Assembly: GCA_902562835.1 (NCBI GenBank)
Contig: CACEUX010000008.1
Coordinates: 3,726-67,725 of the forward strand
DNA: 64,000 bases
From: an uncultured Fidelibacterota bacterium
GTDB taxonomy: Bacteria; Fidelibacterota; Marinisomatia; Marinisomatales; UBA1611
Reading direction: 5' to 3'
Shown here: positions 4,701-59,622 of the stretch, in pieces
Numbering within the stretch: the stretch's first letter is position 1
Layout: each line of letters begins with the position of its first letter
Position numbers and translations under genes: made by a program
The notes under the pieces: generated by a model
Told to the model about the DNA's origin: nothing
What the model saw: only the letters and a program-made list of their open reading frames with translations
Databases searched by the model: none

Positions 4701-5831
4701 ATGAAAAAAACACTTTTTATTATTTTAACCACACTTTCATTTGGGCAAAGACTCGATGAAATAGATATAGCATTAAATGAGCTAGAAACAATAGTTCAAA
4801 TGGCATCACGGTCATCCCAGAAAGTATTTGTAGAAGATTTCACTGGTCTTCAGTGACCATACTGTCCCTCTGCGAGTTTCGCAATATCACAGATGCTTGA
4901 TGATTATCCAGAGACATTAATGAGCATCGAATGGCATAATTCAAGTTTCACCCCTGGAAATTCAGATTTTGATATTCCAGAATATAGTTCTAGAGCCTCT
5001 ATGTATGGAGTGGGCGGTATCCCACACACTCAGTGGAATGGCGTACAAGAAACGGTTGGAGGCTATCCAAATGGTAACTGGGAACAGTTCATAGGAACTT
5101 TCACAGCACTATACAATAATATGGTTGGGAATGATACCCCTTATGAAGTGAGTATAAATGGCTATGCTGGTTTGGAGGTAAGCTACGAAGTAGCAGTTTC
5201 AATGGATTCTGATATGAGTAGCTCTAACCAAAAAGTTGATATATTTGTAGCCGAAGATAACATATGGTCTTATTGGACAGGTGCGAGCCAGTATCATAAT
5301 GCAAGAAATGTAGCAAGGGATTGGTTAGCTACAGAGGATCTGACAATTAGCTCAGAAGGTGAATCACAAATATTTTCAGGTAGTTTTGATCTTGATGAGG
5401 ATTGGAATTCAGACAGTGTAAAGATCATTGCAATTGTTCAAAACTATTCTTCAAAACAGATCTATCAGGTCACTGCCGTAAATATAAATGATATGAATCC
5501 AGATATAGATGATGATGGTGTTTTGAATGGAGAAGACAATTGTATAGATATTTATAATCCAGGCCAGGAAGATAGTGATAGTGACCTCATAGGTGATCTT
5601 TGCGACCCTTGTGACAATTTAGTTTATATTGCTGGAAATATAAATGGTGATACAAATGATAATGGGATTCCAGTTATTGATATCATGGATGTTCTTTCTT
5701 TAGTGGATTATTTGTTGTTTGATGATTCATACGCTTGTCAAGACCCTTCAATGAATTTTAATAATGATGAATTTGTTAATGTCGTTGATGTTATAGCATT
5801 GGTCCAATACATTTTGGGCGGAAATAACTAG
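4701..5831 (+). CDS. Selenocysteine-containing secreted thioredoxin-fold protein (family A, copy 1) with C-terminal TSP3 repeats and dockerin-like module
   Basis: ATG 4701 (MKKTLFIILTTLSFGQ signal) is in frame with the listed ORF 4893..5831, with no other stop between them. The only interruption is TGA 4854-4856 inside VEDFTGLQ-U-PYC-PSASFAI, a UxxC redox motif. A cis-Pro-like GGIPHTQWNG lies downstream. The C-terminus has DIDDDGVLNGEDNC..NPGQEDSDSD..CDPCDN (TSP3) and two Asp/Asn-rich dockerin-like segments. Confidence 0.82.
4854..4883 (+). promoter_or_regulatory. UGA(Sec) plus putative bacterial SECIS hairpin (copy A1)
   Basis: The hairpin TGCGA-GTT-TCGCA (4871-4883) starts 17 nt from the U of the UGA. 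Spacing matches copies A2 and A3. The closing pair is U-A here and C-G in the other two copies, a compensatory change. Confidence 0.6.
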
Positions 5832-5843
5832 GCGAGATAGTTT

Positions 5844-6371
5844 ATGGAGAGAATACATAGATCTACTTTTTATCTCTTTATACTAACAAATTTTATATTT
5901 GCTGACAGTAGTGATATTGGAAATACCATACCAGATCTCAAGATACGATTACTTGATGGTACAACCAAAACTATACATGAACTCGTTGATGATGGTCCTC
6001 TTATGATCGATTTTTGGGCTACATGGTGTGTGCCGTGTAAAAAGCTAATGAGATACCTAGACCAGTATCATCAGGATTATTCTAAGGATGGTTTTAAGGT
6101 GCTGATGATCAATACGGATACTCCTAGATCAATGGGTAAAGTAAAGTCATATGTAAGAGCTCAGGATTATAAATTCTATATTGGAATGGATCCTAATAAA
6201 ACGATCTCAAAGAAATTAAATGGGATGGTTATGCCCACTATGATACTTGTGGATAAAGGCGGGGAAGTGAAATGGCGTCATCAAGGCTACATATCAGGCG
6301 AAGAAATTGAGGTGAACAATCAGATCAAACAACTTTTGGAGAATAATCTTGAAGAAACATTTGAAGGCTAA
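5844..6371 (+). CDS. TlpA/ResA-like periplasmic thiol-disulfide oxidoreductase (Cys form)
   Basis: 175 aa with an N-terminal signal peptide. It has the FWATWCVPCKK thioredoxin active site and MPTMILVD (cis-Pro). Size is typical of the TlpA/redoxin family. Confidence 0.85.
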   Translation: MERIHRSTFYLFILTNFIFADSSDIGNTIPDLKIRLLDGTTKTIHELVDDGPLMIDFWATWCVPCKKLMRYLDQYHQDYSKDGFKVLMINTDTPRSMGKVKSYVRAQDYKFYIGMDPNKTISKKLNGMVMPTMILVDKGGEVKWRHQGYISGEEIEVNNQIKQLLENNLEETFEG

Positions 6372-8325
6372 AATCTTAAAAGAAGCAATTGTACTTATCG
6401 TGTGTACATCATATGTATTTGCTAATCAAGTAGATATGAATGGAGCTGTGAATTCAAATTTTGGAAACAGCTACGGATTTTATGACTTCTCTGAAAATAT
6501 ACTTGATCTAAATATATTTTATAATGACCTTCAAGGTTGGATACAGTATGAATATTCAAATCCTCCTGATATTGGTTTTGGGAAAAATGATATAAGAAAA
6601 TTTAGGCTTGAATACTCAACGGGAGATTTTATCCTAAAATTGGGTGACCTCTATGAGTTCTGGGGGCGAGGTCTTCTCCTTAATCAGTTTGATGATCAGG
6701 TGACTAATTTTGATAATGGTACCAGAGGGATGTTGATCGAGTATGACAGTGGCTCTCTTTCTGCAAGTCATATGAACGGGAATTCAAGTATATGGAACAT
6801 GGGAGCAGATACAAGAACGCCGGAATACAATAATATTCATAGCATGATGGCAAATCGATTAGAGTACAACAGGGGTCTTATTACATTAGGTCTAACCCAG
6901 CTTAGGTCAAATGAGGAACATGATGTGAATTTTGGTCCATCTGTTTTTGTCAGCCATGACCTTAAAGGTGCCTATGCTACATGGGCAAGCGGGAATGCAG
7001 ATCTTTTTGTAGAATATGTAGATAAAGTGTCAACGGAAAAAGTAACTATGTTTGGCACCATACCTAATGATACTTTGCTGAAAGGGCACGGCTACTATCA
7101 AAACTTTAATTTCTATTTTGGTAATTGGGGCATCTCAACTGAATACAAGCGGTATGCTTTTGATAGAGCATATGGTGATATAACTTCTGATGATTATGGT
7201 AACCAGATAGAATACCAGCAGATGCCAACACTTGGGAAGGAACATAATTCCACGTTGCTTGGTCGGCTGACACACAATTACAACTTCAATGACGAAAGAG
7301 GGGCGCAAGTTGAGGTGAATGGATCACTTCTTGGACTATCTATAACAGCCCAATACGCACATCTCAGTCGAAATGAAACATGGCAATCAGTTGGGTCATT
7401 TGAATGGACAGATAAGGCTATTGAGGGCTTTCTACCAAGTTCAGATATATCTGCTTTACCATATTGGGAAAATTACCAGGAAGTCAGTGGGTACGCATTC
7501 AATGATAAGTTCTATTTCAAACTTGGTAGGGGCTCAAATAAAGAAGTTTTAAAGACCATACGATATTTTGAAGGTACTCAGGTTGATATTTCATCTGTAG
7601 ATACTTCATTAACATGGGTCTATGATACACTCGTATGGAATGACGAGACATATTTTGATTCAACAGAAGTCGAACTTTATGATACCAATTATACATCGCC
7701 GTTTAATGTTGAGTCCAAGTTATGGCAAGAAAGTAAAGCTTTTACCATACCTCTGGAAGTGAACTATATTTTTGATAATGGATATACGCTCGGCCTGGGT
7801 TTTCAATACCAAGAGAGAGAAAAGGTAAATAGGTCAAAGGGTAATGCGACAACATTTAATGCCAGTGACTCATCATGGACGATGTACGACCCTGATGATT
7901 ATTCAAATACATATGATGAGACCGTAAGCCAACTTGCAAATCCAGATGGCGCTGTCAAAACACAATATAATCGGCTAGTTTATCTCTCCATAAGTAAAGC
8001 TCCTAAATGGTCTTTTACCATTACCCATGATATGACTAATGCATATGAAGCAAGCTCTCCATATGACCCATACTATAATCCACTTGAAGCATTGATCTCT
8101 GGTGATCTAAAATACTTCACAGGAAAGAGGAACAATATTGAACCACCCAGCTGGATACAAAATCGTTGGGTCTCCGTGGAGTTTGCCTATAATATCACAT
8201 CATCGCAAAGACTTTCAATTATGTATGGCTCAATCCAAGGCGGACTCTTTTGCAGTAATGGTGTTTGCAGACTTATACCCCCATTTAATGATGGGGTTAA
8301 GATCAGTTACAGTGCGAGTTTCTAA
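6349..8325 (+). CDS. Putative large outer-membrane beta-barrel protein (paralog 1)
   Basis: 658 aa with a signal-like N-terminus. Aromatic/Gly-rich alternating strands run throughout and the terminal residue is Phe (..KISYSASF), an OMP signature. It overlaps the TlpA gene end by 23 nt. The start (TTG 6349 or TTG 6361) is uncertain. Confidence 0.65.
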   Translation: MKKHLKAKILKEAIVLIVCTSYVFANQVDMNGAVNSNFGNSYGFYDFSENILDLNIFYNDLQGWIQYEYSNPPDIGFGKNDIRKFRLEYSTGDFILKLGDLYEFWGRGLLLNQFDDQVTNFDNGTRGMLIEYDSGSLSASHMNGNSSIWNMGADTRTPEYNNIHSMMANRLEYNRGLITLGLTQLRSNEEHDVNFGPSVFVSHDLKGAYATWASGNADLFVEYVDKVSTEKVTMFGTIPNDTLLKGHGYYQNFNFYFGNWGISTEYKRYAFDRAYGDITSDDYGNQIEYQQMPTLGKEHNSTLLGRLTHNYNFNDERGAQVEVNGSLLGLSITAQYAHLSRNETWQSVGSFEWTDKAIEGFLPSSDISALPYWENYQEVSGYAFNDKFYFKLGRGSNKEVLKTIRYFEGTQVDISSVDTSLTWVYDTLVWNDETYFDSTEVELYDTNYTSPFNVESKLWQESKAFTIPLEVNYIFDNGYTLGLGFQYQEREKVNRSKGNATTFNASDSSWTMYDPDDYSNTYDETVSQLANPDGAVKTQYNRLVYLSISKAPKWSFTITHDMTNAYEASSPYDPYYNPLEALISGDLKYFTGKRNNIEPPSWIQNRWVSVEFAYNITSSQRLSIMYGSIQGGLFCSNGVCRLIPPFNDGVKISYSASF

Positions 8326-8399: not shown

Positions 8400-9575
8400 A
8401 TGAAAAACCTATATATAATACTACTGATATCATTACCCTTTGCTCAGCAACTGGATCCTGTTGATATGGCCGTTGAAGAATTAAGAACTATAGTTGAAGC
8501 TGCATCAAGATCAAGTCAGCGTGTTTTTGTTGATGACTTTACAGGACTAAACTGACCATACTGTCCATCCGCGAGTTTCGCGATTTCAGAAATGTTAGAT
8601 GAGTTTCCTGGAACCCTAATCAGCACTGAGTGGCACTCAGCGGGCTATACGCCAGGAGATTCTGACTTTGAAGAGTGTTATTATTATGACAACTTTGGAG
8701 GCTGTTATGGTGCAAGAGCTAGTCTTTATGGCGTAGGAGGCATCCCACACACAGAATGGAATGGTATATATGACCTGACAGGAGGTTGGGCTAATGGTAA
8801 TTGGGAACCAGCGTATAATTATTTTATTGGGTTCTATAATGACCTGATTGGAACTGAAACCCCCTACGAGATCATTATCAATGGAATAAAAGATGGCTCA
8901 ACAGTTAATTATGAGATTACTGTTTCTATGGATGATGACTATTCTGTCCAGAACCAAAAAGTAGAAATAATAGTTGTAGAGGATAACATTATGTCATACT
9001 GGGCAGGTGCAAACCAAGACCATAATGCAAGGAATGTTGCAAGGTATTGGATAGGCACTGAAGACCTGACCATCAATTCAGCTGGGCAATCACAAACTTT
9101 TTCAGGATCATTTGAGATAGATGAAGAAGCATGGAACTCTGACAGTGTTAAAATTATTTCAATGGTTCAGAATTATGGGAATTATGAAGTATTTCAAGTT
9201 CAAGAGATAAATGTTAACGAATTTGATACGGATCAGGATGGCGTGGTAAATAATGAAGATAATTGTGAGGCAGACTATAACCCTGGGCAAGAAGATATAG
9301 ATGGAGATGGACTAGGCGATGCATGTGATCTCTGCGACAACACAAACATATACATACCTGGTAATGTCAGTGGTGATTATTGGTATTATGATACTAGTAG
9401 TCTAGAACCGACGGTAACTATTGATGTGTTTGACGTTTTAAAACTTTCGGAGATCATCGTATCAGGGGAAGAAGAGAGTTGTGGATATCAAGCCGGCGAT
9501 CTAACTGGAGATGGTGATGTTAATATAATTGATGTTATTGCACTTGCTTCGTTTATAATGGACGGCGCGTTCTAG
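8400..9575 (+). CDS. Selenocysteine-containing secreted thioredoxin-fold protein (family A, copy 2) with TSP3 and dockerin-like C-terminus
   Basis: ATG 8400 (MKNLYIILLISLPFAQQ) is in frame with ORF 8592..9575. The single in-frame TGA 8553-8555 sits in VDDFTGLN-U-PYC-PSASFAI. DTDQDGVVNNEDNC..NPGQEDIDGDGLGDACDLCDN is TSP3, and GDLTGDGDVNIIDVIALASFI is a dockerin-like repeat. Confidence 0.83.
8553..8582 (+). promoter_or_regulatory. UGA(Sec) plus putative bacterial SECIS hairpin (copy A2)
   Basis: The hairpin CGCGA-GTT-TCGCG (8570-8582) starts 17 nt from the UGA. It lies within a 36-nt block identical to copy A3. Confidence 0.6.
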
Positions 9576-9636: not shown

Positions 9637-9774
9637 GACTTTATCCAACGTTTTTTAATTTATTGAAAAATATAATTTTTTATTTTAAAGCTTATAATAT
9701 TAACTATTGAGTTTTATATGTGTTTTCAACTATTATTGTGTTAGTCTGAATTGAGAACTACCAAGAGGTTAATC

Positions 9775-10980
9775 ATGAAAAAAGCTCGTTCAATAGCACT
9801 TTCATTTATTACAATCACATTTATTTCTACATTCCTTCCTGCACAGGCACTTGATCACAGGCACATGGCGTTCGAGAATCTACGCATGTCTGTTATGAAT
9901 GCTTCTCAAAGTGGCCAAAATGTTTATGTTGAAGACTTTACAGGTCTTAACTGACCATACTGTCCATCCGCGAGTTTCGCGATTGATACACTTCTAAAAG
10001 AATTTCCAGGTACACTTCACTCAATTGAATGGCACAGTCCAGGTTACACTCCAGATTCTTCTGACTTTTGTCTCCAAACAGAGTTTTACATGAGAGCTGG
10101 TCTATACGGAGTTAGTGCTTACCCTACCACTGTATGGAATGGTGTGCATAATCAGGTGGGTGGAGCCAGTGGTGGGAACTGGGAATCCATATATCCTGGA
10201 TATTTAGAGTTATATCATGAGCATTATGACCTGCCATCTCAATTTCGTCTTGGCATATCAGGTGAATATGAGCCTGGAGATAATGAGGTCAATTTTAGTG
10301 TAGAGATACTAATTGACAACGATATTGATACTACTGTAAACATTGAGAATACCTATGTTGAAGTATTCGCTGTTGAAGATAATATTTATTCCTTCTGGGG
10401 AAGTGTTGGGCAGTGGCATAACGCCAGGAATGTAGCAAGAAGGTACGTCACAAAAAGTGAAGCCAATAAGAATCCAGTTTCGGTAAGCGAAGCGGGACAG
10501 TCAGAGATCTTTGAGCACAATTTACTCTTGTCAGATGCCTGGGAGCATTCAAATGTGAAAATAGTTGCTATTGTGCAACAATTTCAAGGTGAAGGATCTG
10601 ACCATCCCATTACTCAAGCTCAAACAAGAAATATAAATGATCTAGATCCTGATCCGGATGGTGATGAATTGACCTATCTTTATGATAACTGTCACTATGT
10701 ATACAATCCTGGGCAAGAAGATGCTGATGGAGACGAATATGGAGACGCCTGTGACGCATGTAATGGACTTGTAAATATTCAAGGGAATGTAGACCTTGAT
10801 GCTCATGGAGAAAATTTTACTCCGATCATTGGTGTGGCTGATGTTTTAGCATTATCTGATCTTCTTGATGGTAGTGGTCTTCCTCCAAATGATTGCCAGT
10901 CTATAGATATGCTTGAAGATGGAACGATAAATAACTTCGACCTGATAGTATTGGTAGATGTGGTAATGGCAGGAGGCTAG
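9775..10980 (+). CDS. Selenocysteine-containing secreted thioredoxin-fold protein (family A, copy 3) with TSP3 and dockerin-like C-terminus
   Basis: ATG 9775 is preceded by AAGAGG (SD-like) and opens a signal peptide, MKKARSIALSFITITFISTFLPAQA. ORF 9751..9954 and ORF 10090..10980 share a frame and are joined by stop-free sequence after TGA 9952-9954, in VEDFTGLN-U-PYC-PSASFAI. SAYPTTVWNG is cis-Pro-like. DPDPDGDE..NPGQEDADGDEYGDACDACNG is TSP3. Confidence 0.83.
9952..9981 (+). promoter_or_regulatory. UGA(Sec) plus putative bacterial SECIS hairpin (copy A3)
   Basis: The hairpin CGCGA-GTT-TCGCG (9969-9981) starts 17 nt from the UGA. Confidence 0.6.
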
Positions 10981-11058: not shown

Positions 11059-12003
11059 ATGAAAGTTATTTTGTTCTATTTCCTTCGTTTACTTTTAATT
11101 ACTTCTTTTGCAGTAATGCCTATTCAGGCTCAACTCCAAGTTGGAGATATTTCCCCTGATTTTAGTGGTCCAATGTGTATGAATGGAGAAGATGTTAACC
11201 CTGATATTGTAACAGGTGATTACTGGAGTTTATTCGAGGAAGGAGATGGAAAGGTTACATGGATAAACTTATTCACTTCATGGTGACCATCCTGTCAGGT
11301 GGAGGCTCCACAAACAGAAAGTATATGGCAGGACTTCTTAGCAGAAAATGAAAATTATCTTAATATAGTTGCCAATGGCTTTGACTGGACATCTTACACG
11401 TGTGCAGGGTGGGCCTCAGCATTTGGAATTACATATCCTATGATAGATGGTGGATCAAGTGGTGGGGAAGCTTGGAATCTTTTTGGAGATGGTTATATTC
11501 CTCACAATGTTGTTCTAGATCATAACCACGAGGTGCTTTACACATCCTCAGGATATAGTGAAGGTGCGATCATGGCTGCTATAGAACTTGGATTATCATA
11601 TGTTCCAAGAGATGAAGATGGAGATGGGATCATGGATAGTACTGATAATTGTATTGATGTTCCTAATGATGACCAATTAGACCATGATTTGGATGGTCTT
11701 GGCGATGCTTGTGACCTTTGCAACAACTTAGAAATATATGTTACTGGTAATATAGATGGGTCTGTTGGTATGACCGATCATAATCCAACCATAGATCTGT
11801 TTGATATACTTCGTTTGTCCGATATTGTCCTCTTGGGTGTAGATGAGGGCTGTGGCTATGAGATCAGTGATATTAGAGAAGATGGAGTTATAAACATTCT
11901 TGATATTATTACATTGGTACAGTACGTCCTCTATGGTGAATTGCCTGATGAGAATACAATCGCTATACCACCTAACGCATATCTCTTATCTGAAAATAAT
12001 TGA
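11059..12003 (+). CDS. Selenocysteine-containing TlpA-like thioredoxin-fold secreted protein (family B, copy 1) with TSP3 and dockerin-like C-terminus
   Basis: ORF 11059..11286 (signal peptide, ..WINLFTSW) and ORF 11299..12003 are in the same frame. They are separated only by TGA 11284-11286, which gives W-U-PSC-QVEAP. This aligns with WCxPC..E.P of TlpA-type redoxins. YIPHNVVLD is cis-Pro-like. DEDGDGIMDSTDNC..DHDLDGLGDACDLCNN is TSP3, and a dockerin-like tail follows. Confidence 0.82.
11284..11311 (+). promoter_or_regulatory. UGA(Sec) plus putative SECIS hairpin (copy B1)
   Basis: The hairpin GTGGA-GGC-TCCAC (11299-11311) starts 15 nt from the UGA. Confidence 0.55.
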
Positions 12004-15570: not shown

Positions 15571-16107
15571 TTGCGTTGGTGTCCTCGTTTTTTATCAGCT
15601 CAAGATAAGGTACCGAACATAAGACTTAAAATGATAAACGGTAAATACGCAAAATTATACGATTTTCTCAAAGAAGGACCTATGATAATTGATTTCTGGG
15701 CAACCTGGTGCGAGCCATGCAAAAAGCAAATGCGCTATTTAGACCTTTTCTATAATCATTTTAAACCATCTGGGTTTAATGTCCTCACGGTTAATACTGA
15801 TTCACCAAAAAGTATGAGCAAGGTAAAGCCTTATATTCGTACAAAAGGTTTTGAATTCAATGTTGCCGTAGATCCAAATAGCCAGGTGAAAAAGAGACTC
15901 AAAGTACAGGAAATGCCTACAACGATAATTATTGATCAGGATGGTTCAATATTGTATCGTCACAAGGGCTATGTTCCAGGCGATGAAGTTGGTATTCTAA
16001 AGGCTGTAACTGATATCCTTGATAAAAAAGGTATAGAATATCTACCTCTAGACCTCGATAAAGTCCAAGCAGTAAAGAAACAAGAGAAACTTAATATTGA
16101 TTTTTAG
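15571..16107 (+). CDS. TlpA-like thiol-disulfide oxidoreductase (Cys form), apparently frameshifted from its signal peptide
   Basis: FWATWCEPCKKQM active site and MPTTIIID cis-Pro. It is a close paralog of 19382..19960. As listed it has no signal peptide. A signal peptide (GTG 15549, MKRLIIIIALVSSF) lies in the neighbouring frame, across a T6 run at 15588-15593. Confidence 0.75.
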   Translation: MRWCPRFLSAQDKVPNIRLKMINGKYAKLYDFLKEGPMIIDFWATWCEPCKKQMRYLDLFYNHFKPSGFNVLTVNTDSPKSMSKVKPYIRTKGFEFNVAVDPNSQVKKRLKVQEMPTTIIIDQDGSILYRHKGYVPGDEVGILKAVTDILDKKGIEYLPLDLDKVQAVKKQEKLNIDF

Positions 16108-18385
16108 AATATACAATTTGACCAAGCTCCTTAATAGTACGCTTTTCTGTTCTGGAATCTTATTTACAACATTAGTCAATGCACAAATAAGTACAGGAGG
16201 AGATGCTTCACTTAAATTTGGTGAGAGTAAGAATAATTTTAATTATTCTGAGGTCTTATTAAATATGAATGTCAGCAATGATTACCTAACAACATGGTTT
16301 CAGTTTGAATATAGTAACCCTCCTGAAATTGGCTTAACTAAAAATGGCTTAAGAAAGTTTAGGGTAGATTATGTTGGAGATAATATTGAACTTTCTGTCG
16401 GAGACATTTACAAAATATGGGGAAGGGGACTTATCCTAAATCAATTTGATGACCAAGATGTAGACTTAGATAATGGATATAGGGGCTTAAGTTTTGGACT
16501 GATAGAAAATGATTATTCATTAAATCTTATTGCAGGTAATTCAAATATATCTAACATTACTTCTGATTATATGTATGACCTCGATCTTGAAGTTCGAAAG
16601 CCAAATTATTTTCCAAAGCATTCCTTATTTGGTGGCGATTTTGAGTTGTTCCGTGGTCCGGTATCTTTTGCAACATCTTTTTTGCAAAGTCGTGAGAGCC
16701 ATCCTATCAATGCTGGTATGCAACCAGATAGCATCGATGTTATTCACCGAATACATGGGCTAAGAAGTGGGTATGAAGGAAACTCATTAAGTGGGTATGT
16801 AGAATTGGCAAATAAATTAACTCTTCTACCCACATCTATGGGAAGTGATGATCATGAAGATTTTAGACCTTATAATGGAACCTCTTTATTTGCAAATCTG
16901 AATTACTATTTTAACATGTCACCCTTTGATGGTTGGTCACTCATGATGGAGTATAAGAATTACAATACTACAAAGATCAATCCAGACCAAAGGAATAATT
17001 ATGTAAATAATTATGACATGAATTTGATCTTCACTCAACCACCTACAGTGATTCGTGAGCATAGTAGTGTATTGCTAGCAAGGCTGATTCCGCAGGTCAA
17101 TTTCAATGACGAGGTGGGCTACCAACTCTCACTCGTAGGCCCAGTTAGTAATCTAGGGTATTTTACTCTTAATTATCAGGCTGCCAGCAGGACCAGCTTA
17201 TGGGCAAAAGAATTTCCAGATACTGTAAACGCGGCATTTAGTTCAAAATGGAGTGGCGATAGTTCTATAACTTATTTACCATATGATGATGATGTCACGT
17301 TTCCTTATAATGAGTTGTATGTTGAAATGGAAGGGTATATCAATAAGATACGATATCAACTTGGTTTAGGCTTTACAAATAAAATATCTGAATACCATTC
17401 TCTCTATAGTAGTGCTCAAAATAATAGCTGGGACATAGGTGAGTTATTTACAGATCTTAATAATAGTGGTACATGGGATCCGGGTGAACCTTATGATGAT
17501 CTATATAGTATTGTAAATGAGAGATTAGAGAATAAATATACCAATGCTGTCACAGTACCAACGTTGTTTAATTATAATCTGGGAAATGGATTGAGCATCG
17601 ATCTCAAATATGAGTACCAAAGGTTGAAAAGTGGTGTTAATTATAATTTCACATTGTCATCGGATGAGTACTTCGAAGATCTTGATGGAGATGGCTTATG
17701 GGATATGGCAGAGTTGTTTACTGATGATAATGAAAATGGTGTGTGGGATGATGCTGAAGAAACTTGGTATGATAATTGGTTGAATGGTTGGATTTCTGAT
17801 GACCTTTTACCAAATTATGACACGAATGGCAATGGTGAATATGATATTGGAGAATATTTTTCTGATGCAGATGGTGATGGTATTTGGGACCCCGCTGAAG
17901 CTTTCACTGACCTTGATGGTGATGGAATATGGGATGATGGAGAGGTCTTGGACGATATGAATAATGATGGTGTATGGACACCAAAAGGAACTTACGTAGA
18001 TAGTACAAGATCTAACTTTTATGCCTATGATGGCGATAGCGATGAAAAGCTAGCTCAAGAATTTCAAAATAATCATATGTTAACAATTGGTCTTGGAAAG
18101 TCACCTTATTGGTCTTTATCATTGACCATAGAATCAAGTTCAGCGTACGAATATGGACCTCAACCTTTAAGCATCTCTAATCCACTTGAAGATCTACTTG
18201 GCAACATTATGGATATGGAAAACAAATGGGTGGCAATCGACCTTATGATAAATATCAACTCAAATACACGTCTTGATCTTATGTATGGGACTTTAAGAGG
18301 TGGTGTCATTTGTAGTAATGGTATTTGTAGATATGTTGAACCATTTGATGACGGATTCAAGCTAAGTTTGACCTCAGTATTCTGA
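16097..18385 (+). CDS. Putative large outer-membrane beta-barrel protein (paralog 2) with Asp-rich repeat insertion
   Basis: 762 aa. It shares N-terminal (WFQFEYSNPPEIG...LILNQFDDQ) and C-terminal (GG.ICSNGICRYVEPFDDGFKLSLTSVF) blocks with 6349..8325 and ends in Phe. It overlaps the upstream TlpA-like gene by 11 nt. Confidence 0.65.
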   Translation: MIFRIYNLTKLLNSTLFCSGILFTTLVNAQISTGGDASLKFGESKNNFNYSEVLLNMNVSNDYLTTWFQFEYSNPPEIGLTKNGLRKFRVDYVGDNIELSVGDIYKIWGRGLILNQFDDQDVDLDNGYRGLSFGLIENDYSLNLIAGNSNISNITSDYMYDLDLEVRKPNYFPKHSLFGGDFELFRGPVSFATSFLQSRESHPINAGMQPDSIDVIHRIHGLRSGYEGNSLSGYVELANKLTLLPTSMGSDDHEDFRPYNGTSLFANLNYYFNMSPFDGWSLMMEYKNYNTTKINPDQRNNYVNNYDMNLIFTQPPTVIREHSSVLLARLIPQVNFNDEVGYQLSLVGPVSNLGYFTLNYQAASRTSLWAKEFPDTVNAAFSSKWSGDSSITYLPYDDDVTFPYNELYVEMEGYINKIRYQLGLGFTNKISEYHSLYSSAQNNSWDIGELFTDLNNSGTWDPGEPYDDLYSIVNERLENKYTNAVTVPTLFNYNLGNGLSIDLKYEYQRLKSGVNYNFTLSSDEYFEDLDGDGLWDMAELFTDDNENGVWDDAEETWYDNWLNGWISDDLLPNYDTNGNGEYDIGEYFSDADGDGIWDPAEAFTDLDGDGIWDDGEVLDDMNNDGVWTPKGTYVDSTRSNFYAYDGDSDEKLAQEFQNNHMLTIGLGKSPYWSLSLTIESSSAYEYGPQPLSISNPLEDLLGNIMDMENKWVAIDLMININSNTRLDLMYGTLRGGVICSNGICRYVEPFDDGFKLSLTSVF

Positions 18386-18507: not shown

Positions 18508-19374
18508 ATGAAGCAGCTCATTTCAATATTGATAATACCATTCTTTCTTAGTATTTCACCACTTGATGGTCAAGATGTTTACATGGAAGATTTTAGTGTA
18601 CCTATATGTGAAAACGGTAATGGAGAAGATACTCTACACTTTTTTGAAGCATATAATGGTGCATATAACGATTGTGGTTACAAGGTGATATTTGCCACTC
18701 TTTTTACCTCCTGGTGAGGATACTGCTGGGGGGAGGCTCCCCTCACACAGCAGTTATACGACACATATAATGACCAAGGCCTTGAAGTGGTTGCATTTGG
18801 AGCTGATTGGGGTGAGCCATATACTTGCCAACAGTGGATGAACTCATTTGATATTACATATCCCATTGCTGACTTTGAGACTGGCATGCCTAATTGGTAT
18901 CAAGAGGATATACCTATCAATCTACAGATGCATCAAATAGGTTGGGGCCTACCTTACAATATTATTATAGACCATAATATGGAGGTCATCTGGGGGGGCG
19001 TAAATGACATTGCTGAGGAAGAAGTATGGGAAGAGGCTGTTACAATGATAGAAAGTGCTCTGAATCATTTGAATGCGGAGGCACTCGTTGATAATGATGG
19101 GGATGGTATAGCTAATGAATGTGATGATTGCCCTGACTCACATCTATATACCTTAGGAAATTTTGATTTTTCAGAAGAAATCGTAGTTGATGGTCTTAAC
19201 TTTGTATATGCCCCTAGCATAGAAGTTTATGATCTACTTTTCCTTTCAGATCTAGTTAGCAGTGGTGATGAAATTTCACCATGTTATATTGAGGCGAGTG
19301 ATTTTACTGGTGATAATGCTCTGGATTTAATTGATATAATGGCTTTAGCTAGCTATATAGTAGAGGGTAATTAG
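18508..19374 (+). CDS. Selenocysteine-containing TlpA-like thioredoxin-fold secreted protein (family B, copy 2)
   Basis: ORF 18508..18717 (signal peptide, ..ATLFTSW) and ORF 18787..19374 are in frame. TGA 18715-18717 gives W-U-GYC-WGEAP, with stop-free sequence between the two ORFs. GLPYNIIID is cis-Pro-like. DNDGDGIANECDDCPD is a TSP3-like repeat, followed by a dockerin-like tail. Confidence 0.8.
18715..18744 (+). promoter_or_regulatory. UGA(Sec) plus putative SECIS hairpin (copy B2)
   Basis: GGGGA-GGC-TCCCC core (18730-18742), extendable to 18728-18744 with one G-U pair. The offset from the UGA is 15 nt, as in copy B1. Confidence 0.55.
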
Positions 19375-19381
19375 AAAAATC

Positions 19382-19960
19382 ATGACCATTAAGGCTCGAT
19401 ATGATATGCTTAGAAAGATATTTTTTTTTACAATGCTCTTTACATTGGCATATTCGCAAGGCAAGGTTCCAAATGTACGTCTAAAAATGTTAGATGGTAG
19501 CTCAGCCAAACTTTATGATTACCTCAAAGATGGGCCTATGATCATTGACTTTTGGGCAACTTGGTGTGAGCCATGTAAAAAACAGATGCATCATCTAAAT
19601 AAATTTCACCAGCATTTCAAAGATGCTGGATTTAAGGTTCTTACTGTTAATACTGATACTCCAAAAAGTATGGGCAAGGTGAAATCATATATAAGGTCAA
19701 AGAAATTCAAATTTTTTGTAGCTGTAGATCCTAATGGTCAAGTAAAGAAAAAATTAAAAGCAGAGCTCATGCCGACTACGATCTTAGTTGATACGGATGG
19801 CTCGGTGCTTTATCGTCATCAGGGGTATTACCCAGGAGATGAAGATAAAATATTAAAACATATCACGGACTATTTTGATGCAGCAGAAATAAGCTATGAC
19901 CCATACGATACTGAAAAGAAAAAACAGACAGCTAAAAAGCAAGTAGATATAGATTTTTAG
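19382..19960 (+). CDS. TlpA-like periplasmic thiol-disulfide oxidoreductase (Cys form)
   Basis: 192 aa with signal peptide (IFFFTMLFTLAYSQG), FWATWCEPCKKQM and MPTTILVD. It starts 8 nt after the family B Sec gene. Confidence 0.85.
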   Translation: MTIKARYDMLRKIFFFTMLFTLAYSQGKVPNVRLKMLDGSSAKLYDYLKDGPMIIDFWATWCEPCKKQMHHLNKFHQHFKDAGFKVLTVNTDTPKSMGKVKSYIRSKKFKFFVAVDPNGQVKKKLKAELMPTTILVDTDGSVLYRHQGYYPGDEDKILKHITDYFDAAEISYDPYDTEKKKQTAKKQVDIDF

Positions 19961-21617: not shown

Positions 21618-22409
21618 GTGAAAATTAAACTAATCATCACATTATTTTTAATGACGCTTTCTAGTGCACAAGTTTATGATGTGGGCGATTTTGCACCATC
21701 CGATTTTGGACTTCCTTGGTGTGGTAATAACCCAGCTGGTGATGATAGTTTATTTTTGAGTGCATATAATGGAGCTATCAATGAAACAGGCCGTCCCTAT
21801 GTCATATGGTTGACTGCTTTTACAACTTGGTGAGGATATTGTTTGACGGAGGCTCCTGTCACTCAAGAATACTTTGATCTCTATGCTGATTCAGGATTAG
21901 TTGTGATTGGAATGGGAGGCGACTGGGGCCAACCTTACACCTGTGAAGGGTGGGTAGACAACTTCGGTTTAGGTTACCCTATAATATCTGATGAGGATAC
22001 CTACAATGAATATGAATATGGAGGTTTAGGAACTAATTTATTTACAGATACTTGGGTTCCATATAATATGATAATAGATCATACAATGGAGATAATCTAT
22101 TCGTCATCTGATTATTATGGTCAGGAAGGATATGACCTAATTTTCGATAAGCTCTTTGGCGCCTTAAATAAATGTACTCTATGCACCTGCTCAGAAGTTC
22201 TTGGAGACATTGACCATACATATACCATTGATAATGAACCTATCATTAATATAATGGATTTGTTAAGGCTCTCGGATCTTATTACAACGGATACGCGAAT
22301 GAACCATTGCGAGAGAGGGCAGGGAGATATTACTGGAGATGGTGTTTTGAATACGATCGATCTTTTTGCTTTTGCAACCATGATCTCAGAAGGTGTCTTT
22401 GATAACTAA
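21618..22409 (+). CDS. Selenocysteine-containing TlpA-like thioredoxin-fold secreted protein (family B, copy 3; dockerin-like tail only)
   Basis: ORF 21618..21833 (GTG start, signal peptide, ..LTAFTTW) and ORF 21843..22409 are in frame. TGA 21831-21833 gives W-U-GYC-LTEAP. WVPYNMIID is cis-Pro-like. The C-terminus GDITGDGVLNTIDLFAFATMI is dockerin-like. I see no TSP3 repeat. Confidence 0.78.
21831..21860 (+). promoter_or_regulatory. UGA(Sec) plus putative SECIS hairpin (copy B3)
   Basis: GGA-GGC-TCC core with a possible bulged U and outer GAC/GTC pairs (21845-21860). It is weaker than copies B1 and B2. Confidence 0.4.
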
Positions 22410-23433: not shown

Positions 23434-26400
23434 ATGTTTATAATTAAAAAAATATTATTTTATTTTATGAGCACCCTAAACAAAAGAAACATTGTTTCTA
23501 TGTTAGTTGGTATACTGAGTTTTTCTCAGCTAGTAGCTGCAAGTATTGATATCAGATTATCCAATAATAATACCTTTGGTACAAGTAGTCGTGGGGCATA
23601 TAATATTGATGTTTCGAATACAGATAATGGTGGTGTGACAGGTGGTATTGTTGTTTTGATCACTGATGCAACGGTTGACCATGATTACAAAGTATATGTG
23701 CAATATCATACTGGGGCTCCTGCTAATTCGAATCAATGGTTTTCACAGCAGATCAATGAGGCAGGAAATACAAAGATATCGATTGGAACAGATGGTACCG
23801 CTACTCAATATATTCCTCATGCTGCTATTGAAGCTTCTGACGATTGGCAAGGAACTGATTATGATGGTAATGTGACCTGGATCATTGTGAATGATGATCT
23901 TGATGATGATGACGAGCCTAATACTGCGAGCGGCACACAACATTACGAGACATATGATTTTGATATGATCGCACCGACCATATCAAATCAAACCATATCG
24001 GCACCTAAAGATGCTCCTTTCAACCAGACCTATCCGCATTATGCTAAGGAAGGTGACCAGATCAAAATGACATTTACCTCGGACGAAGCTATTAGCACTC
24101 TAACAGGCAACTTTCATGGAAATAGCAATATCTCAGCACAAAATTTAGATAGTACGTCTCCTTATGTTACTATAAATGCAGTCAATACCATGCCTGATGG
24201 TTCGACGGTCACGTTCAGTTTTATTTTAAAAGATTCCAATGGTAATTCGGCAACCATTTCATCAACGGAAAATAGTTCAAGCGTAATCACAGACTTTACT
24301 GCGCCTGATATAAATAATGGTACAACATACTATACATCTATGGTTACTGGAAATGGTGATTATTTTGCTAAAAGTGGTGACAACGTTGTACTGTCGATTA
24401 AAGCAAGTGAGACCCTTGTGCAGGGTAATTTTGATAATAATAATGCAACTGATGAAAGTGCCTACATGGTTTTTAATGTGGGTACATCAACGAATGTCAC
24501 AGTCACTCCAGCGCTTTCCGGTATCGCAGGCAATAATAGCTCAGAGTTTACTTCCACAGTGACGGTAACAGATGACAATGAGACTTCAAATACCTATGTA
24601 GATTTTTCGATTACAGGTATCTATGATAGGGCTGGAAATGAAACAGCTATTACAGATGATGTACCGACCATCAATGATCGTGTATACTATGATAGTACCG
24701 ACCCAACCATTGAAGAAATGTCCCACTCAACACCTGCCAGTAATGCTAATCCAAATCCATATCGAGCAAAAAATGGAGATGCTATAAAACTGACATTTGC
24801 TGCTAGTGAATTATTGGATTACAACTGGGATGATAATATTAATACACAACCAGCCCTGACATTCCAAGGTGGTGGTGGGAGCGGTAATTCATTTAATGCA
24901 AATACTATTGCAAGCGTTAGCAATCTGCAGAACTTTACTGCCACTCTTAATGATGTTGCTGGCTTATCAGAAGGTCAATTGAATTTCTCATTAGCTTTTA
25001 GAGATCGTTCAGGAAATCAAGCTTCAGCTCATACTGCATTGACCAATGAAGGTACTAGAATAACGATTGACAACAGTGCTCCTACGATCGATAATCTAAC
25101 GGTTGCATCTAATTCAACAAGTAATACTGCATTTGCCAAGCCAGGTGAGAGAGTAACGATTTCTATTGATGTGAATGAAGAGCTACGGAATTTATCGCAA
25201 TATGAGATCACAGATTATGATGATGGAGTGGCAGGGACCATAGGTGGGATAGAAGCAGAGGCGACCATGCAGGGAGGAACTGGTGGCCAGGTTTGGATCT
25301 TATCAGCGATCATGGGTGATTCACATCCCGAGGGACTATTAGAGTTTTCAGCAACATTGACCGATATGGCAGGTAATACTAAGGTTGTGACTCAGGCGGA
25401 TATTACTTCAGGTACTTCAGTTACCTATGATAAAACAGCTCCGACCATTGTTAGTGCATCGATACAGTCAAATAATATTAACCCTACTTGGGCAAAGGAA
25501 AATGAAGTAGTAACACTTATTTTTGAAGTGAATGAGAATTTAAAAGAAGACCCCACTGTGTCTATTGCTGGTGGCGCTGCCACAAAGGTGGGCGTGAATG
25601 TGCGAACCTACACCTATACTATTACTGTGGATTCCGATGACCATGAGGAAAATATTCTTGACACAAATCCAAATACAAACTTCACAATTGATTTTACAAA
25701 TGAGGCAAATATAGCTGGAACCCAATATACTCACGCGAGTGATGGCGTTGATGGGACAGTCACTATAGATTATACTCCACCAACTCTAACAAATGTTTAT
25801 ATAAAATCAGATAATACTGTTGATACATCCTATGCAAGATCTGGTAGCAATGTAACTCTTAAGTTTAAAGGCGTTGATGCACTTAGCTCTGGTTTATTGA
25901 GAGATGATCTTATAGTGACATTTGATACGGGTGCTGGTGGGGCCAGTTTGAATGCAACTGAAAATGGGGATAATACAAACGCGAGTTGGACCGCAACCGC
26001 CGAAATGGGAGCAGGTGTTCTTGAACAAGACCTAACGTTTTCAATCGCTGGTTTTAAAGATCTAGCAGGTAATGTAGGGACTACAGTGACTGATTTGTCT
26101 GGTGGCTCTCAGCTCACCTATGATCAAACAGCTCCTACATTATCTGCTCTTACAATGGCTTCTAATAATAGTAATAGTAACCAATTATCCAAGGTTGACG
26201 ATGCCATTACTATGGCAATAACTGTTAATTCAACGGTTGAACCTAATGGAATACAGTTACCAGTTGTTACCATTGCAAATAGATCATCAGCGGATGGAGA
26301 TGTTACTATCAGAAATGCTGCAAATGATGGGAATGCTAGTCAGGGAGATCTAGTATTTACAGCTAATTATACGATGCAGGATGCCGATACAGAAACTGAT

Positions 26401-29400
26401 TCCGTAGAATTTCAGGTTGCATTTACCGATCTAGCGGGAAATGTTGGAACAGCGGTAACCTCATTGGTCAATGATCGTGGGGTAAGTTTTGATAAAACTG
26501 CACCAGATTTTACCAATACAGCCATTAACTCAAGTGTAACCATTACATCTGATAATGGGAATGGTGATCCTACCATTGCTACAGTTAATGACGTTATTAC
26601 TCTCACTCTTACATCTGCAGAGGCACTTAAGGCAGCTACAAAACCAATTGTAACTATACTGGGTGTAAGCGCGACTGTAGGTGCAGATGCAGATAATAAG
26701 GTATTTACAGCAACGCATACTATCACTGGTAATGAAACGGGTATCACTAATAACCAGGTCATCTATTTTAATGTTGACGCTGGATATACAGACCCAACAG
26801 GGAATACTGGGTCTGCTATCACTCAGGCAGCAGCTTCCTTTGCAAATGCTACACTTCGTTCTACAAATGGGTCTTATGTCCTTTATGATATTACTGCGCC
26901 AGTTTTTGACCCTGTCAGGATCAAGTCTAGTAATGCCAACGACTCAACTCTGGCCATAGCAGCTGATGTTATTACTCTTACCATGATATCAGATACGCCT
27001 ATAAAAGCAGCTACTAAGCCAACAATATCTATTGCTGGAAACGTGATCCCAGATGATGATATTACTAGAGTTGGAAATACAAAGTTTGTAGCTACTTATG
27101 CTATGCAAAATAATACAAATGATAATACTTATAATGATCCTGATATAGTCATTCCTATCTCCGTAACAAATTATGATGATGCAGCGGGTAACACAGGGAG
27201 CGCTGTAACCAATACCTCTGACCCTACCAATAGTTATGTTGTGTATGACAATACCAATCCAGACCTACAGCAGGTGACCATTGCCTCAAACCTTGATGAA
27301 GATGATCCCTCTTTGGCTATCCCAGGTAGTACCATTACACTTCAATTTATAGCGGATGAGGTGGTTCAGGAACCAACTGTAACGATCGTGGGTAGACCCC
27401 CTGATAATCTAACTGGTTCAAACGGTAACAAAACATGGACAGCGACTATTGTTATGTTGGAGGATGATAGTGATGCTGCAGACCCCATACCATTTGCCAT
27501 ATCTTATTCTGATCTGGCAGGGAATAATGGTAGCGCCTATGATCAGACTGGAACTACAGATGGCTCTAGCATTAGTTTTGATAAGACAAAGCCTACACTT
27601 AGCGCTATCTATATGGTTTCTGAAAGCTCTGATAGTAAGGATAGTACTTATATAAACCCTGGTAATAATCTTAGTATTCGCTTTAAAGTAAGTGAGCCAC
27701 TCGCAGCATTGGATATTTATATGAATGCTACAAATAGAGGTAGATACCCCACTGTTGCTGATGACGCTATAACGATCACAAAACTTACGGAATGGAATGG
27801 TACATTTGAAAAATGGAAAGCGGTTTGGCCGGTAACTGATGGTACGGATGATGATGATGGTGCAGGGGTTGTCATACCTTTCACAATTGACTTTACAGAT
27901 CTAAATGGCTACAGTGGAGACCAGGTTACTGAGACCACAGACGATGTCTATGTGACCTACGATAAGACTGAACCCAGTGTTCAAGTATTTACCTACCTTT
28001 CAAACAACAATACAACTACTCTTGCGAAAGCAGATGATATCATCACGGCTAGTTTAACTGCTAGTGAACTGATCCAGCAACCCTCTATCAAGATAAGTAC
28101 TGCTTCAGTAGATGAAAGTGCTGGCGATACGGATAGATCATGGACAGCTACCAAGACACTAAATACTGATGATGTGGAAGGGCAGGTAGAATTAAAATTG
28201 GTCACATTTAAAGATTATGCGGGCAATGTGGGTAGAACGTCAGATATTAATAGGACGACAACAACTGACGATCTATATGTCACATATGATAAGACAAAGC
28301 CTGTCCTAACAAAAGTGAATGTATACAGTGACAACAACTATAGCAGCAATACAATGGCCAAAGTACAGGACATTGTTACCATTGAAATTTCAACGGGTGC
28401 TGATGGTGAGCTCATTTCTTCACCAACCGTTAGTATGATCGGTAATACACAAGATGTGACTGTCACTCCTAACACCCCTAATGCAGTCAGTGACCAAACA
28501 TGGTTGGCATCAAAGACGGTTGTTACAAATCATTCTGAGGGTGAAGTTGTATTCTCAATTACCTGTACTGATCTTGCAGGTAACGAGAGTGATGCGGTTG
28601 CTGTCTTGACCAATGACACAGATAATACAAATGTCACTATTGACAGAACAAAGACCGACCTGTCTGGATTGACCTTGGATATGGTCAATGATTCAGATAC
28701 GGGTATTCAAGCATATGATGAAGATGGCAATCTCAATTGGGTTGGTAAAACTGATAACTTGACCAGTGTACAGGCACCGACCTTTAGCATATCTGGATTA
28801 ACAAGTACTGCAAGTGCATCTGGAGACTCCATATACCTTATTATAGATAATGGGACCGCAATCGATACAACTATAAGGTCTAAGGTCAATGCAAATGAAA
28901 TGAACTTTACTGTTCCTTCAGATCTTCCAAGTCAACTTACGGCATATTCTGCAACAATTGTGACTAAGGATCCGGCAAATAATATTTCTGACCCTACTAC
29001 AGTTCTTAAGTTTAGGATAGATACGGATCCACCAGCATTAGGAAATGCTCCAGACCTTATAGCCACACATGATACGGGATTTGCAGATGATGATAATGTG
29101 ACAAACAATAGAAAATTTACTTTAGAGCTCGCAGGATTGGTCGCAAATAAACAAAATGTTATTGATATTTATTATGATGCTGAATCAGCAGGCGTAGATA
29201 ATTTTCTTGTAGTGGCTGATGTTATGATGGAAGTAGACAAGGACACTCCTTTAAGAGATGGGTCAGATACAATTTGGGTCAGTCGTTCTCTCCCTGATGA
29301 TGAGTATACCTTTAGTTATACTGTCACTGATTCTGCGGGGAATGTCTCCGCTAAGAGTGCTACCACTGTTATTACTGTTGACAGAACGGTGCCATCTACG

Positions 29401-32400
29401 CCAGACACACCTGATCTTACAGTTGCAGCAGATAAAGGAACCTCAAATTCGGATAACTTGACCAATTTAGAAACTATCATTTTTAATGTGACAAGTATGG
29501 CAGCAGGGGATAGTGTGCATGTTATAAATTCAGGAAATGCTGTAGTAGGTCGTGGATTTGCAAATGGCCAAACGTCTGCTGAAGTTACTATCGCAGGAAT
29601 CACGGAAGCTTCAAGCAGTGACTTTAAAGCGTATGCTATAGATCAGGCAGGGAATATATCATCTTCATCAACCAATGCCTTATCAGTTGTTATCGATCAG
29701 ACAGCACCATATATCGATGGATTTACTGTAAATGACAATGGAAACTATACTGATCTTGGAGAAAGTCCACCGATGCTGGTCGATCTTAAGGCTGACTCAG
29801 ATACGGGGACCTCATCCACCGATGACCTAACTAATAATAATAAGCCAAGCTTTACTCTTTCAAATCTCACAGCTACGGACTCGGTATTCCTTTACTTTAA
29901 TGATGATTCGATCAAAGGATATGCTTCAGGCACAACCCATGAGTTCACCATACCGGATGATAAAGAACTGGCAGATGGAGAGTATAATTTTGCAATGAAG
30001 GCTAGAGATTATGCTGGAAACCTATCAGCCATTACAACAATAGATGGAACAAATATTATTCCCGTCACTGTAGATACCACACCATTTACTATTACTACAA
30101 TCCCAGATATGACACCTGGTACGGATACAGGTATAAACTCAGAAGATCAAATTACAAATAATAGAGCACCTACTTTTACAATGACCGGCTTGCCGGCATC
30201 TGCTGAGATCATCCAACTCTATGTTGATGGCGTTTTATCTTCTGCATCAACGAAAAATGCAGATGTTACTACACATGAATTTGCATTAGGCTCTAATCTT
30301 GATGAAGGGACCTTTGATATCACATTTAAAATTGTTGATGCAGCGGGTAATGTTTCTTCTGAAAGTGAAGCGCTTAGCATTACGATAGATTTCACAGCTC
30401 CAAGTGATCCAGGTATTGTCGATCTCGTTGATTCTGATGATACAGGAGTTTCTAGTTCAGATAATCTAACCAAGAGAGCATCTATGGAGATCACATCTTC
30501 AGGTTTGACAGAAGGTGACTATGGTAACCTTTATAGATTAGATGCAGCAGATAATCTTGATCTTGTAGAGCAACTTCTGGTGGATGCATCTGGCTCATTA
30601 ACTTACACTGCTACAAATGACGCTGATGGGGTTTATCGTTTTTACACGAATATTGAGGATGTTGCAGGTAATAAATCTAGTAATTCAGATAATATTACGA
30701 TCACAGTTGATCAAACAGCTACAGATGTTTCATCCGTTGAGATCGATCTCGATACCAGTTCAGATACTGGAAGGGATAACGTTGATAATTTGACGAATGA
30801 TAAAACCCCGACATTTACTATAAATAATACAGTATCCGGTGATTCAATTCTTATGGTTTTCAGCAGAGTTTGTATTGATCAGGCCGGTAATAATATTCCT
30901 GGTTGTGATGCCTCATTACCAGTTGCACCAAATGACACCTTAAGGGGTAAAGCAACTGGTACATCTATTTCATTGGTAGCAACCACGTCACAGATAGACA
31001 ATGATCTTCCAGATGGATTATATACTTTATCAGTATTTGCGAAAGACGATGCAGGTAACTACTCTTTAGCTTCTCCAGAGTTGCAATTTAACCTAGACAC
31101 TCAGCCAGAGCCTATTGATATAGATCACCCTGATTATCCTGATCTTCCAATTCCTGATCTAATGGCAGCATGGGATAATGGATTATACGATAATGATAAT
31201 ATCACTAATAATCAAACACCTCGTATCTTGATGGACAACATAACTGACTATGATTATTATGTCCGTCTTTATGTTTTGACAGGAATTCAGAATCGTTTAG
31301 TTGCTGAAAAAAGAAAGGTGTTTAATCAGGATACTGTTTCATTAAAGATTCCGAATGCGACCCAAGATATGAATGGGGATGGTAATACAGATGCTGAAGA
31401 TTTTTGGCTTGTTGAAGGTCAGCATACCATTCGCTATACGATAGAGGATGATGCGGGTAATGTCTCTGATTTTAGTCAGCCTCTTGTTATTACTATTGAT
31501 GTGACCAAGCCTGCAACACTTGGTCAGCCTGACCTCTTAGTATTGGATGATATTGGAGAATCAGATTCTGATGACCTTACAGCTCCGTTAATAGCAAATG
31601 GTGCTGAATTTGATAATCAAATTCGTATCAATATTGATGATGGCAACGCACTTCCAGGGTATAAATGGGTGCTTTATTCATTTGTGGATGTGGATGGTGA
31701 TGGAAATTATGCAGCTGCATCAGATTCGGATCTTTTGCGTCTAGATTCATCTCTTGTGCCTGGCGGTAGATATGAAAAATGGTATTGGAATAATATCTCT
31801 AATGGTCTAAATGCCGAAGATCTACCACCGGCAGACTCAACTTGGGAAGGAATCTCTGACCTTGATACAGTAGGCGTCCCCACCACTGGAGATTACTATT
31901 ATACGACTCAGCAGGTAGATTCATCAGGGAACAGATCTGATTATAGTAGTGGTCTACAAATAACAACGGACTTTGATGCCCCAACACATACAATTTCTTA
32001 TGAAGAAGGAGGTAATCCTAGTGACCTTCTTGTGAGGTTTGAAGATGGTACAGTTGATGTTATAGTGGATTATTCAGAGCCAATGGATGATCTGGTTGAC
32101 CTTCCAACTATATCTTTTGTCCGCTATGCTGGTAATGATGATTTAGCTATACCTGATGCAACTCTATCAAAAGTTGCTAATGATGATCAGAAATGGACCT
32201 ACGCAATTCCTGTCGACACAGAGGGCCTAGAAACAAGCAATGGTCCTATCACCCTCTTAAATCTTATCGGTAAAGATAGAGCAGGCAATGCACTTTCATT
32301 TAATGATGCTCAAGTTATAATCGACAATAATGCTCCCCAGTTTACCCAGCTTTTTCCAGCATCTGGCTCATTCAATAATGTTTTGAATAATTTTGGTTGG

Positions 32401-47084: not shown

Positions 47085-47136
47085 TGATATAACGCACAGG
47101 GGGTCTCAAACAAGGTTCCCATATTACAACCCAAAG

Positions 47137-47901: not shown

Positions 47902-47939
47902 GTTCATATCATTAAAAAGAAATATTTTATTATAGCTAG

Positions 47940-52461: not shown

Positions 52462-52467
52462 GCCTTC

Positions 52468-56870: not shown

Positions 56871-56879
56871 GGAATAAAT

Positions 56880-58524: not shown

Positions 58525-58533
58525 TTATTAATT

Positions 58534-59606: not shown

Positions 59607-59622
59607 GATATCGGAAAAAATT

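Follow-up and report, generated by a model that had tools for sequence, protein, structure and literature searches.

In Escherichia coli the selenocysteine insertion sequence (SECIS) of fdhF begins at the UGA codon and spans about 40 nt, with a bulged U in its upper stem and a GGUC tetraloop. Its minimal 17-nt upper hairpin and the binding of the SelB WH3/4 domains (cited in PMC7590224) were reportedly described by Liu et al. in 1998 and by Fourmy et al. in 2002. Bacterial SECIS (bSECIS) elements are notoriously heterogeneous, and the discovery of bacterial selenoproteins is hampered chiefly by the lack of a good model for them (PMC12013277). In the bSECIS consensus, as summarised in PMC13188914 and PMC10778597, the first two positions of the small apical loop hold a G that is often followed by G or U, and the distance from the UGA to the apical loop is 16–37 nt. 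Here we describe a 13-nt hairpin at positions 8570–8582 of a 64,000-nt stretch of DNA from an uncultured Fidelibacterota bacterium (contig CACEUX010000008.1, forward strand; the whole stretch is referred to as the window). The hairpin lies downstream of an in-frame UGA in A2, one of three related genes of the window, and had been noticed in an earlier reading of the letters of the window (the original prediction). Comparative sequence evidence indicates that it is very probably a functional SECIS of the Omp28-related selenoprotein mRNAs of Marinimicrobia (SAR406).

Like the fdhF element, the hairpin is a feature of the sense mRNA inside an open reading frame (ORF), and in both the loop G and U are located at about nt 23–24 from the U of the UGA. 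Predicted stabilities are also similar, lying between −3 and −6 kcal/mol for the marine hairpins (−4.7 kcal/mol in the comparison with fdhF) and at −4.2 kcal/mol for the minimal fdhF 17-mer. In contrast, the hairpin of the Omp28-type genes displays no bulged U, a GUU triloop, no long lower helix and no sequence similarity to fdhF, and its 5-bp stem with a triloop is, as had been remarked originally, shorter than the classical fdhF element. The hairpin would work like the fdhF element while standing outside the fdhF sequence family. With the bSECIS model (bSECISearch; Zhang and Gladyshev, as given in PMC13188914 and PMC10778597) it shares the position of a coding-region stem-loop just downstream of the Sec (selenocysteine) UGA, a small loop in which G comes first and is followed by U (Omp28-type genes) or G (redoxin-like genes of the same window), and a UGA-to-loop distance of 19 nt in the Omp28-type genes (8556–8574 in A2) or 17 nt in the redoxin-like genes R1 and R2, both inside the range of 16–37 nt. 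Within this model the hairpin stands at the small extreme, with a 5-bp stem, a triloop, no bulge and at most a weak 3-bp lower stem.

Omp28-related selenoprotein genes of the window

A1 (4701–5831), A2 (8400–9575) and A3 (9775–10980, with an alternative TTG start at 9751) are tandem genes on the forward strand, and each ORF continues through its TGA. Translation through the TGA places the Sec codon of A1 at 4854–4856; that of A2, at 8553–8555, corresponds to the leading Cys of CPYC in full-length homologues with Cys in its place (Cys-type homologues), and that of A3, at 9952–9954, lies within a read-through ORF. The three proteins share the same order of a signal peptide, a thioredoxin-like segment, an Omp28-like domain and a tail composed of TSP3 and dockerin-like modules. 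The thioredoxin-like segment displays the motif FTGL(N/Q)-U-PYC-PSASFAI and thus contains a U-P-Y-C redox motif; over the CxxC region the family profile matches the archaeal thioredoxins 1nho and 1fo5 of the PDB. The A2 and A3 proteins are 43% identical.

A1 and A2 score 587 and 514 bits, respectively, against NCBIfam NF045500 ('Omp28-related selenoprotein'), for which the curated cutoff on the whole-protein score is 200 bits, and A2 additionally matches Pfam Omp28 and Dockerin_1. The host genes therefore belong to a family already curated as Sec-containing, in which a SECIS after the bacterial Sec UGA is expected. NF045500, of which A1 and A2 are members, describes the protein only, and literature searches found no paper on this Omp28-related family, its SECIS, or selenoproteins of Marinimicrobia/SAR406. 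Among described proteins, the UxxC selenoproteins of the Global Ocean Sampling (GOS) selenoproteome (PMC2398784) are alike in being marine, in their thioredoxin- or peroxiredoxin-like fold, in the UxxC motif, in having many Cys homologues and in their predicted bSECIS elements with a conserved loop G. Unlike these GOS thioredoxin-fold proteins, A1–A3 add Omp28-like, TSP3 and dockerin-like domains, and no specific GOS family was matched.

The C-terminal tail is common to the Omp28-type proteins A1–A3 and the redoxin-like R1 (for example 5490–5831 and 11560–12003). In this tail a TSP3-like Ca-binding repeat is combined with a dockerin-like module, and that of R1 matches NF045500 at 108 bits. In one homologue (P0015) the tail is replaced by FlgD_ig and a Por_Secre_tail of the type IX secretion system (T9SS), a replacement that, judged from the domain content, suggests display at the cell surface.

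Conservation and covariation of the hairpin

The hairpin of A2 reads CGCGA-GUU-UCGCG and is encoded by (TC)C GCG AGT TTC GCG; A3 carries the same hairpin at 9969–9981. In A1 (4871–4883) it reads UGCGA-GUU-UCGCA, the closing C-G pair having become U-A through TCC to TCT and GCG to GCA, both of which are synonymous, and this compensatory change was correctly picked out in the original prediction. All three hairpins comprise 13 nt, with a 5-bp stem and a GUU triloop. The 17-nt distance from the UGA that had been given for them is exact when counted from the U of the UGA to the start of the stem, leaving 14 intervening nt. When the sequence around the UGAs was folded, as had been proposed, the A2 hairpin was present in the minimum-free-energy structure.

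A protein search returned two classes of homologues, Sec-type, represented by truncated ORFs, and Cys-type, represented by full-length proteins. The Sec-type database entries are ORFs whose first residue is a Met located 13 codons downstream of the UGA, and they span 77% of the query. Among the public proteins recovered (P0001–P0120) this storage of Sec-type homologues as truncated ORFs amounts to a systematic misannotation of the family, and one entry (P0012) has W at the Sec position, presumably through a gene caller using code 4 or 25. Loci were collected by scans of genome contigs (29 loci, L001–L029) and of metagenome contigs (69 loci, L030–L098), and provided 78 Sec-type sites, 64 of which are distinct; 63 were aligned, without gaps, after dropping one that runs off its contig.

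The hairpin is kept in 62 of these 63 distinct sites, the five proposed pairs being formed in 99.7% of stem cells, and the GUU loop is found in all 63. None of 500 shuffles matched the observed covariation score or the percentage paired, and sliding the 3' partner by 1–3 nt lowered pairing to 6–78%. RNAalifold predicted the same helix de novo from the Sec-type alignment. Pair 1, formed between the third positions of the Ser codon and of the second Ala codon, occurs as C-G (42 sites), U-A (14), A-U, G-U and U-G (2 each), with a single mismatch. Pair 3 is C-G in 57 sites and U-G in 6, the U-G cases accompanying an Ala to Val change, and pair 4 is G-C in 61 and A-U in 2, where GCA and TTT appear together (L015 and L024). 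By Fitch parsimony on a neighbour-joining tree of the downstream protein, pair 1 has changed at least 10 times and pair 4 twice, the changes being distributed over all three paralogue lineages.

Third-position entropy follows the limits of the hairpin. It amounts to 1.8–1.9 bits just upstream, 0.8–1.8 bits in the spacer and 0–0.2 bits at the three core hairpin codons, while the two outer hairpin positions covary. The spacer codons CCN TAY TGY CCN vary freely across the family. This bears on the 36-nt block with which the original prediction began. As had been claimed, A2 (8550–8585) and A3 (9949–9984) are exactly identical over AACTGACCATACTGTCCATCCGCGAGTTTCGCGATT, the codons upstream already differ synonymously (GGA CTA versus GGT CTT) and the sequences diverge downstream, where the peptides read SEM and DTL. 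The RNA-level constraint attributed to this block stands for the 13-nt hairpin and fails for the 36 nt as a whole, which were rejected as a constrained unit: third positions in the spacer differ among family members, and the block is the modal variant of the family, found in 5 of 63 distinct contexts and common to 1.1% of random family pairs. Taken by itself, the window gives modest significance: A2 and A3 share the codon at 47% of identical residues, and a run of 12 identical codons has p ~0.01 over the gene. The orthologues of A2 and A3 in related genomes have spacers that differ from each other and yet keep the hairpin.

A possible weak 3-bp lower stem surrounds the hairpin (8561–8563 with 8587–8589, and equivalents). 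It reads CUG/CAG in 35 of 39 genes of the S-E type and UGU/ACA in 12 of 14 of the D-T type, against 6 of 20 Cys-type sequences. An extended lower helix was not retained, this being just weak 3-bp pairing that shifts register and is suggestive rather than established; neither the alignment nor RNAalifold revealed a conserved lower helix reaching the UGA.

Codons flanking the UGA are skewed as well. The Asn codon before the Sec UGA (8550–8552 in A2) is AAC in 35 of 35 Sec-type sequences and never AAT, the base preceding the UGA is C in 42 of 63, and the codon after it is CCA in 48 of 63 Sec-type against 5 of 21 Cys-type sequences. The skewed codons next to the UGA may represent a local context preference for recoding. 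A Ser codon preference was also observed, for TCA in the Sec-type (38/44) and for TCT in the Cys-type (15/21).

Comparison with Cys-type homologues

The Cys-type homologues provide a control in which the peptide is retained and the UGA is not. They read CPYC-GYASFA at the site, the UGA aligning to the first Cys of the CxxC, and were represented by 33 sites, 21 of them distinct in the codon counts and 20 as distinct rows in the pairing test. The residues A-S-F-A are kept through GCA/GCT/GCC, AGT/AGC, TTT and GCA/GCT. GCG at the first Ala occurs in 0 of 15 Cys-type and 56 of 58 Sec-type sequences, and all five pairs are formed in 1 of 21 Cys-type and 63 of 64 Sec-type distinct sequences. Pairing of the Cys-type stem, at 69%, is indistinguishable from that of shuffles. 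The same residues are thus encoded by other codons and without a stem in the Cys-type, and therefore the constraint does not act at the level of the protein and is tied to the UGA.

The element is built from synonymous positions of the S-A-S-F-A codons because it lies in a coding region. This is the reason that the codons TCC, GCG, AGT, TTC and GCG, which are rare in this genome (TCC 8%, GCG 12%, AGT 22% and TTC 23%), are frozen and change only in compensating pairs.

Putative redoxin-like selenoprotein genes

A scan for TGA-interrupted ORFs in the window yielded three further candidates, R1, R2 and R3, all on the forward strand, which share the motif FT[ST]W-U-xxC...EAP. R1 (11059–12003; Pfam Redoxin and AhpC-TSA) is a putative redoxin/TlpA-like selenoprotein with W-U-P-S-C, the Sec UGA at 11284–11286 and the TSP3 and dockerin-like tail of the A genes. 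Its hairpin, GUGGA-GGC-UCCAC (11299–11311), has a UGA-to-loop distance of 17 nt and a possible lower stem CUGU/ACAG. In R1 UGA serves both as Sec codon and as true stop (12001–12003), and the hairpin follows the first UGA only. R2 (18508–19374) was assigned from its motif W-U-G-Y-C, with the Sec UGA at 18715–18717, and carries the hairpin UGGGGGGA-GGC-UCCCCUCA (18727–18745), which has 8 bp when extended; its core, GGGGA-GGC-UCCCC (18730–18742), again has its loop 17 nt from the UGA. R3 (21618–22409, GTG start), likewise assigned from W-U-G-Y-C, has its Sec UGA at 21831–21833 and a hairpin with the same apex, GAC-GGA-GGC-UCC-U-GUC (21845–21860), that needs a bulged U or a larger loop.

Counted from the U of the UGA, the R1–R3 hairpins begin at a distance of about 15 nt. 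Among the fetched loci, redoxin-type homologues show the arms GCGGA/UCCGC and UCGGA/UCCGA; here the 5' arm varies with the amino acid encoded (Val, Ala, Ser or Gly), and the 3' arm follows through the third base of a Pro codon and the next codon. The apex GA-G(U/G)(U/C)-UC is common to the Omp28-type and redoxin-type hairpins. Only 18 of the 3191 TGAs in the window precede a 5-bp hairpin with a G-first triloop; five of these lie in a read-through ORF and are exactly five of the six Sec candidates. The same pattern was observed for the 17,746 TGAs of the fetched loci, with one likely false positive. All six UGA sites occupy the redox Cys position of thioredoxin-fold proteins. R1–R3 together with A1–A3 make six putative selenoprotein genes within about 17 kb of the window.

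Proposed assignment of the hairpin as a bSECIS

The assignment as a bSECIS, already put forward in the original prediction, is supported by the conserved structure, by covariation, by restriction to UGA-containing homologues and by the fit to the consensus. In the proposed mechanism, the steps of which follow the established bacterial Sec pathway, 5'-N-GCGA-GUU-UCGC-N'-3' would serve as the bSECIS at 8570–8582, 9969–9981 and 4871–4883. As the ribosome nears the UGA, SelB carrying GTP and Sec-tRNASec would use its C-terminal winged-helix domains to contact the apical G-U of the hairpin in the sense mRNA. Binding of SelB would tether the complex at the correct distance from the UGA, which would then be decoded as Sec in the U-P-Y-C redox motif and not read by RF2. 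By analogy with this pathway we infer both SelB binding and hairpin-dependent recoding.

Several observations weigh against this assignment. Neither the 64-kb window nor any of the 98 fetched loci contained selA, selB, selD or tRNA-Sec; SAR406 single-cell genomes are listed with SelD in an earlier survey (PMC5029168). No relevant Rfam family was identified, the window scan at the gathering threshold giving two tRNAs only and the permissive scan around the site nothing relevant at E ≤ 10, and the RNAfold single-sequence z-scores of −0.3 to −1.5 are not significant. The size of the element, a 5-bp stem with a triloop, itself counts on this side, as do the A-G mismatch at the closing pair of one homologue (L015) and the bulge requirement of the R3 hairpin, the weakest of the six. 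Finally, AGT is the majority Ser codon in the Cys-type too (17/21), and the conservation of the loop is therefore partly ancestral.

Alternative explanations

The alternative that survives best, itself an unlikely one, is that the RNA structure is real and has another role, as a site of ribosome pausing, as an mRNA-stability or RNase element or as a SelB-independent stimulator of read-through. In other systems, read-through of a stop codon can be stimulated by a hairpin that follows it. This leaves unaccounted for the strict association of the hairpin with UGA-containing homologues and its loss in the Cys-type, as well as the agreement of the loop G and of the distance with the bSECIS consensus. 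In addition, six UGAs at the redox Cys position of thioredoxin folds are a hallmark of Sec and not of generic read-through.

Short-tract gene conversion, concerted evolution of the tandem paralogues or shared ancestry could have produced the A2/A3 identity without any function of the RNA, an explanation to which we give very little probability. Around the UGA, A2 and A3 do agree at 9 of the 12 third positions outside the hairpin (0.75), at the top of the within-genome distribution, and paralogue pairs within genomes are slightly more alike than pairs between genomes (0.53 versus 0.45). These figures leave room for some concerted evolution between paralogues, which is insufficient for the family-wide pattern. 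Gene conversion does not explain the near-invariance of the hairpin core over 63 distinct sequences in which flanking synonymous sites are saturated, nor why compensatory changes recur and the Cys-type lacks the stem, and it fits poorly with the A2 and A3 orthologues of related genomes that keep the hairpin with differing spacers.

That the inverted repeat acts in DNA, as a palindromic protein-binding or recombination site, was considered because CGCGA-N3-TCGCG is a perfect DNA palindrome, and was rejected as highly improbable. Ten distinct sequences keep the stem only via G-U wobbles, which on the other strand are C-A mismatches; wobbles confined to the sense strand point to RNA and not to DNA. 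Moreover, the site is linked to the reading frame and to the UGA, and the redoxin-like genes share its shape and not its sequence.

Equally remote is the selection of rare codons (GCG, TCC, TTC) after the UGA to slow translation with the structure being incidental, since the rarity of the hairpin codons in this genome (8–23%), which speaks for it, is set against closing-pair codons that do switch to the common TCT, TCA, GCA and GCT, only in matching pairs, against GCA and TTT arising jointly twice and against spacer codons nearest the UGA that show no rare-codon constraint; it was rejected because codons change freely while pairing persists. A reassigned UGA (code 4 or 25) was also rejected: TGA ends 6 of 17 long ORFs as an ordinary stop and the genetic code is therefore standard, in-frame TGAs occurring only at UxxC sites.

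Genomic context

Between the Sec genes a module of two genes occurs twice, at 5844–8325 and 15571–18385. Its first gene encodes a Cys-type TlpA/redoxin protein (WCVPC) and its second a DUF6029 protein (658 or 762 aa), and one more redoxin of the Cys-type, the third, is encoded at 19382–19960. Together, the Sec genes and the Cys-type redoxin modules look like an extracytoplasmic thiol-redox island. Further downstream, a giant ORF (23434–36354) encodes 4306 aa, the first 1189 residues of which have no Pfam match. The region 44403–51917 encodes proteins with T9SS tails (Por_Secre_tail/FlgD_ig), including an M6-like peptidase, and 52048–61083 holds a type IV pilus cluster, with a pilin-like protein, a PilT/T2SSE ATPase, PilM, PilN, PilO and a secretin; both are ordinary context.

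Significance

The hairpin very probably acts as the SECIS of these mRNAs, a reading that leaves the understanding of Sec decoding itself unchanged. What sets the candidate element apart is that it is unusually small, that comparative evidence supports it unusually well and that Sec-type and Cys-type homologues contrast so cleanly. A more specific proposal, which we put forward tentatively and regard as somewhat doubtful, is that the SelB of Marinimicrobia recognises an exceptionally minimal SECIS, a 13-nt, 5-bp triloop hairpin in which the apex GA-G(U/G)(U/C)-UC and a spacing of 17–19 nt would be all that unrelated selenoprotein families have in common. If true, such an element would constrain just 4–5 codons and rank with the smallest bSECIS classes in nature. 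Internal Sec residues could then be engineered with a compact tag, a use in which a very small SECIS could help, and selenoproteins could be sought with a model specific to the lineage in AT-rich marine genomes, on which generic SECIS predictors do poorly.

For the lineage, the hairpins provide a SECIS signature, an apex GA-GNN-UC at 17–19 nt after the UGA, that accounts for the truncated ORFs, or the W in place of Sec, under which public databases store these genes, and flags a 17-kb cluster of six putative secreted thioredoxin-fold selenoproteins. An abundant uncultivated marine phylum thus offers a clean natural experiment, in which the same peptide is present in dozens of Sec-type and Cys-type homologues and in the Sec-type homologues alone rare codons are frozen as parts of a hairpin whose evolution proceeds through compensatory changes.

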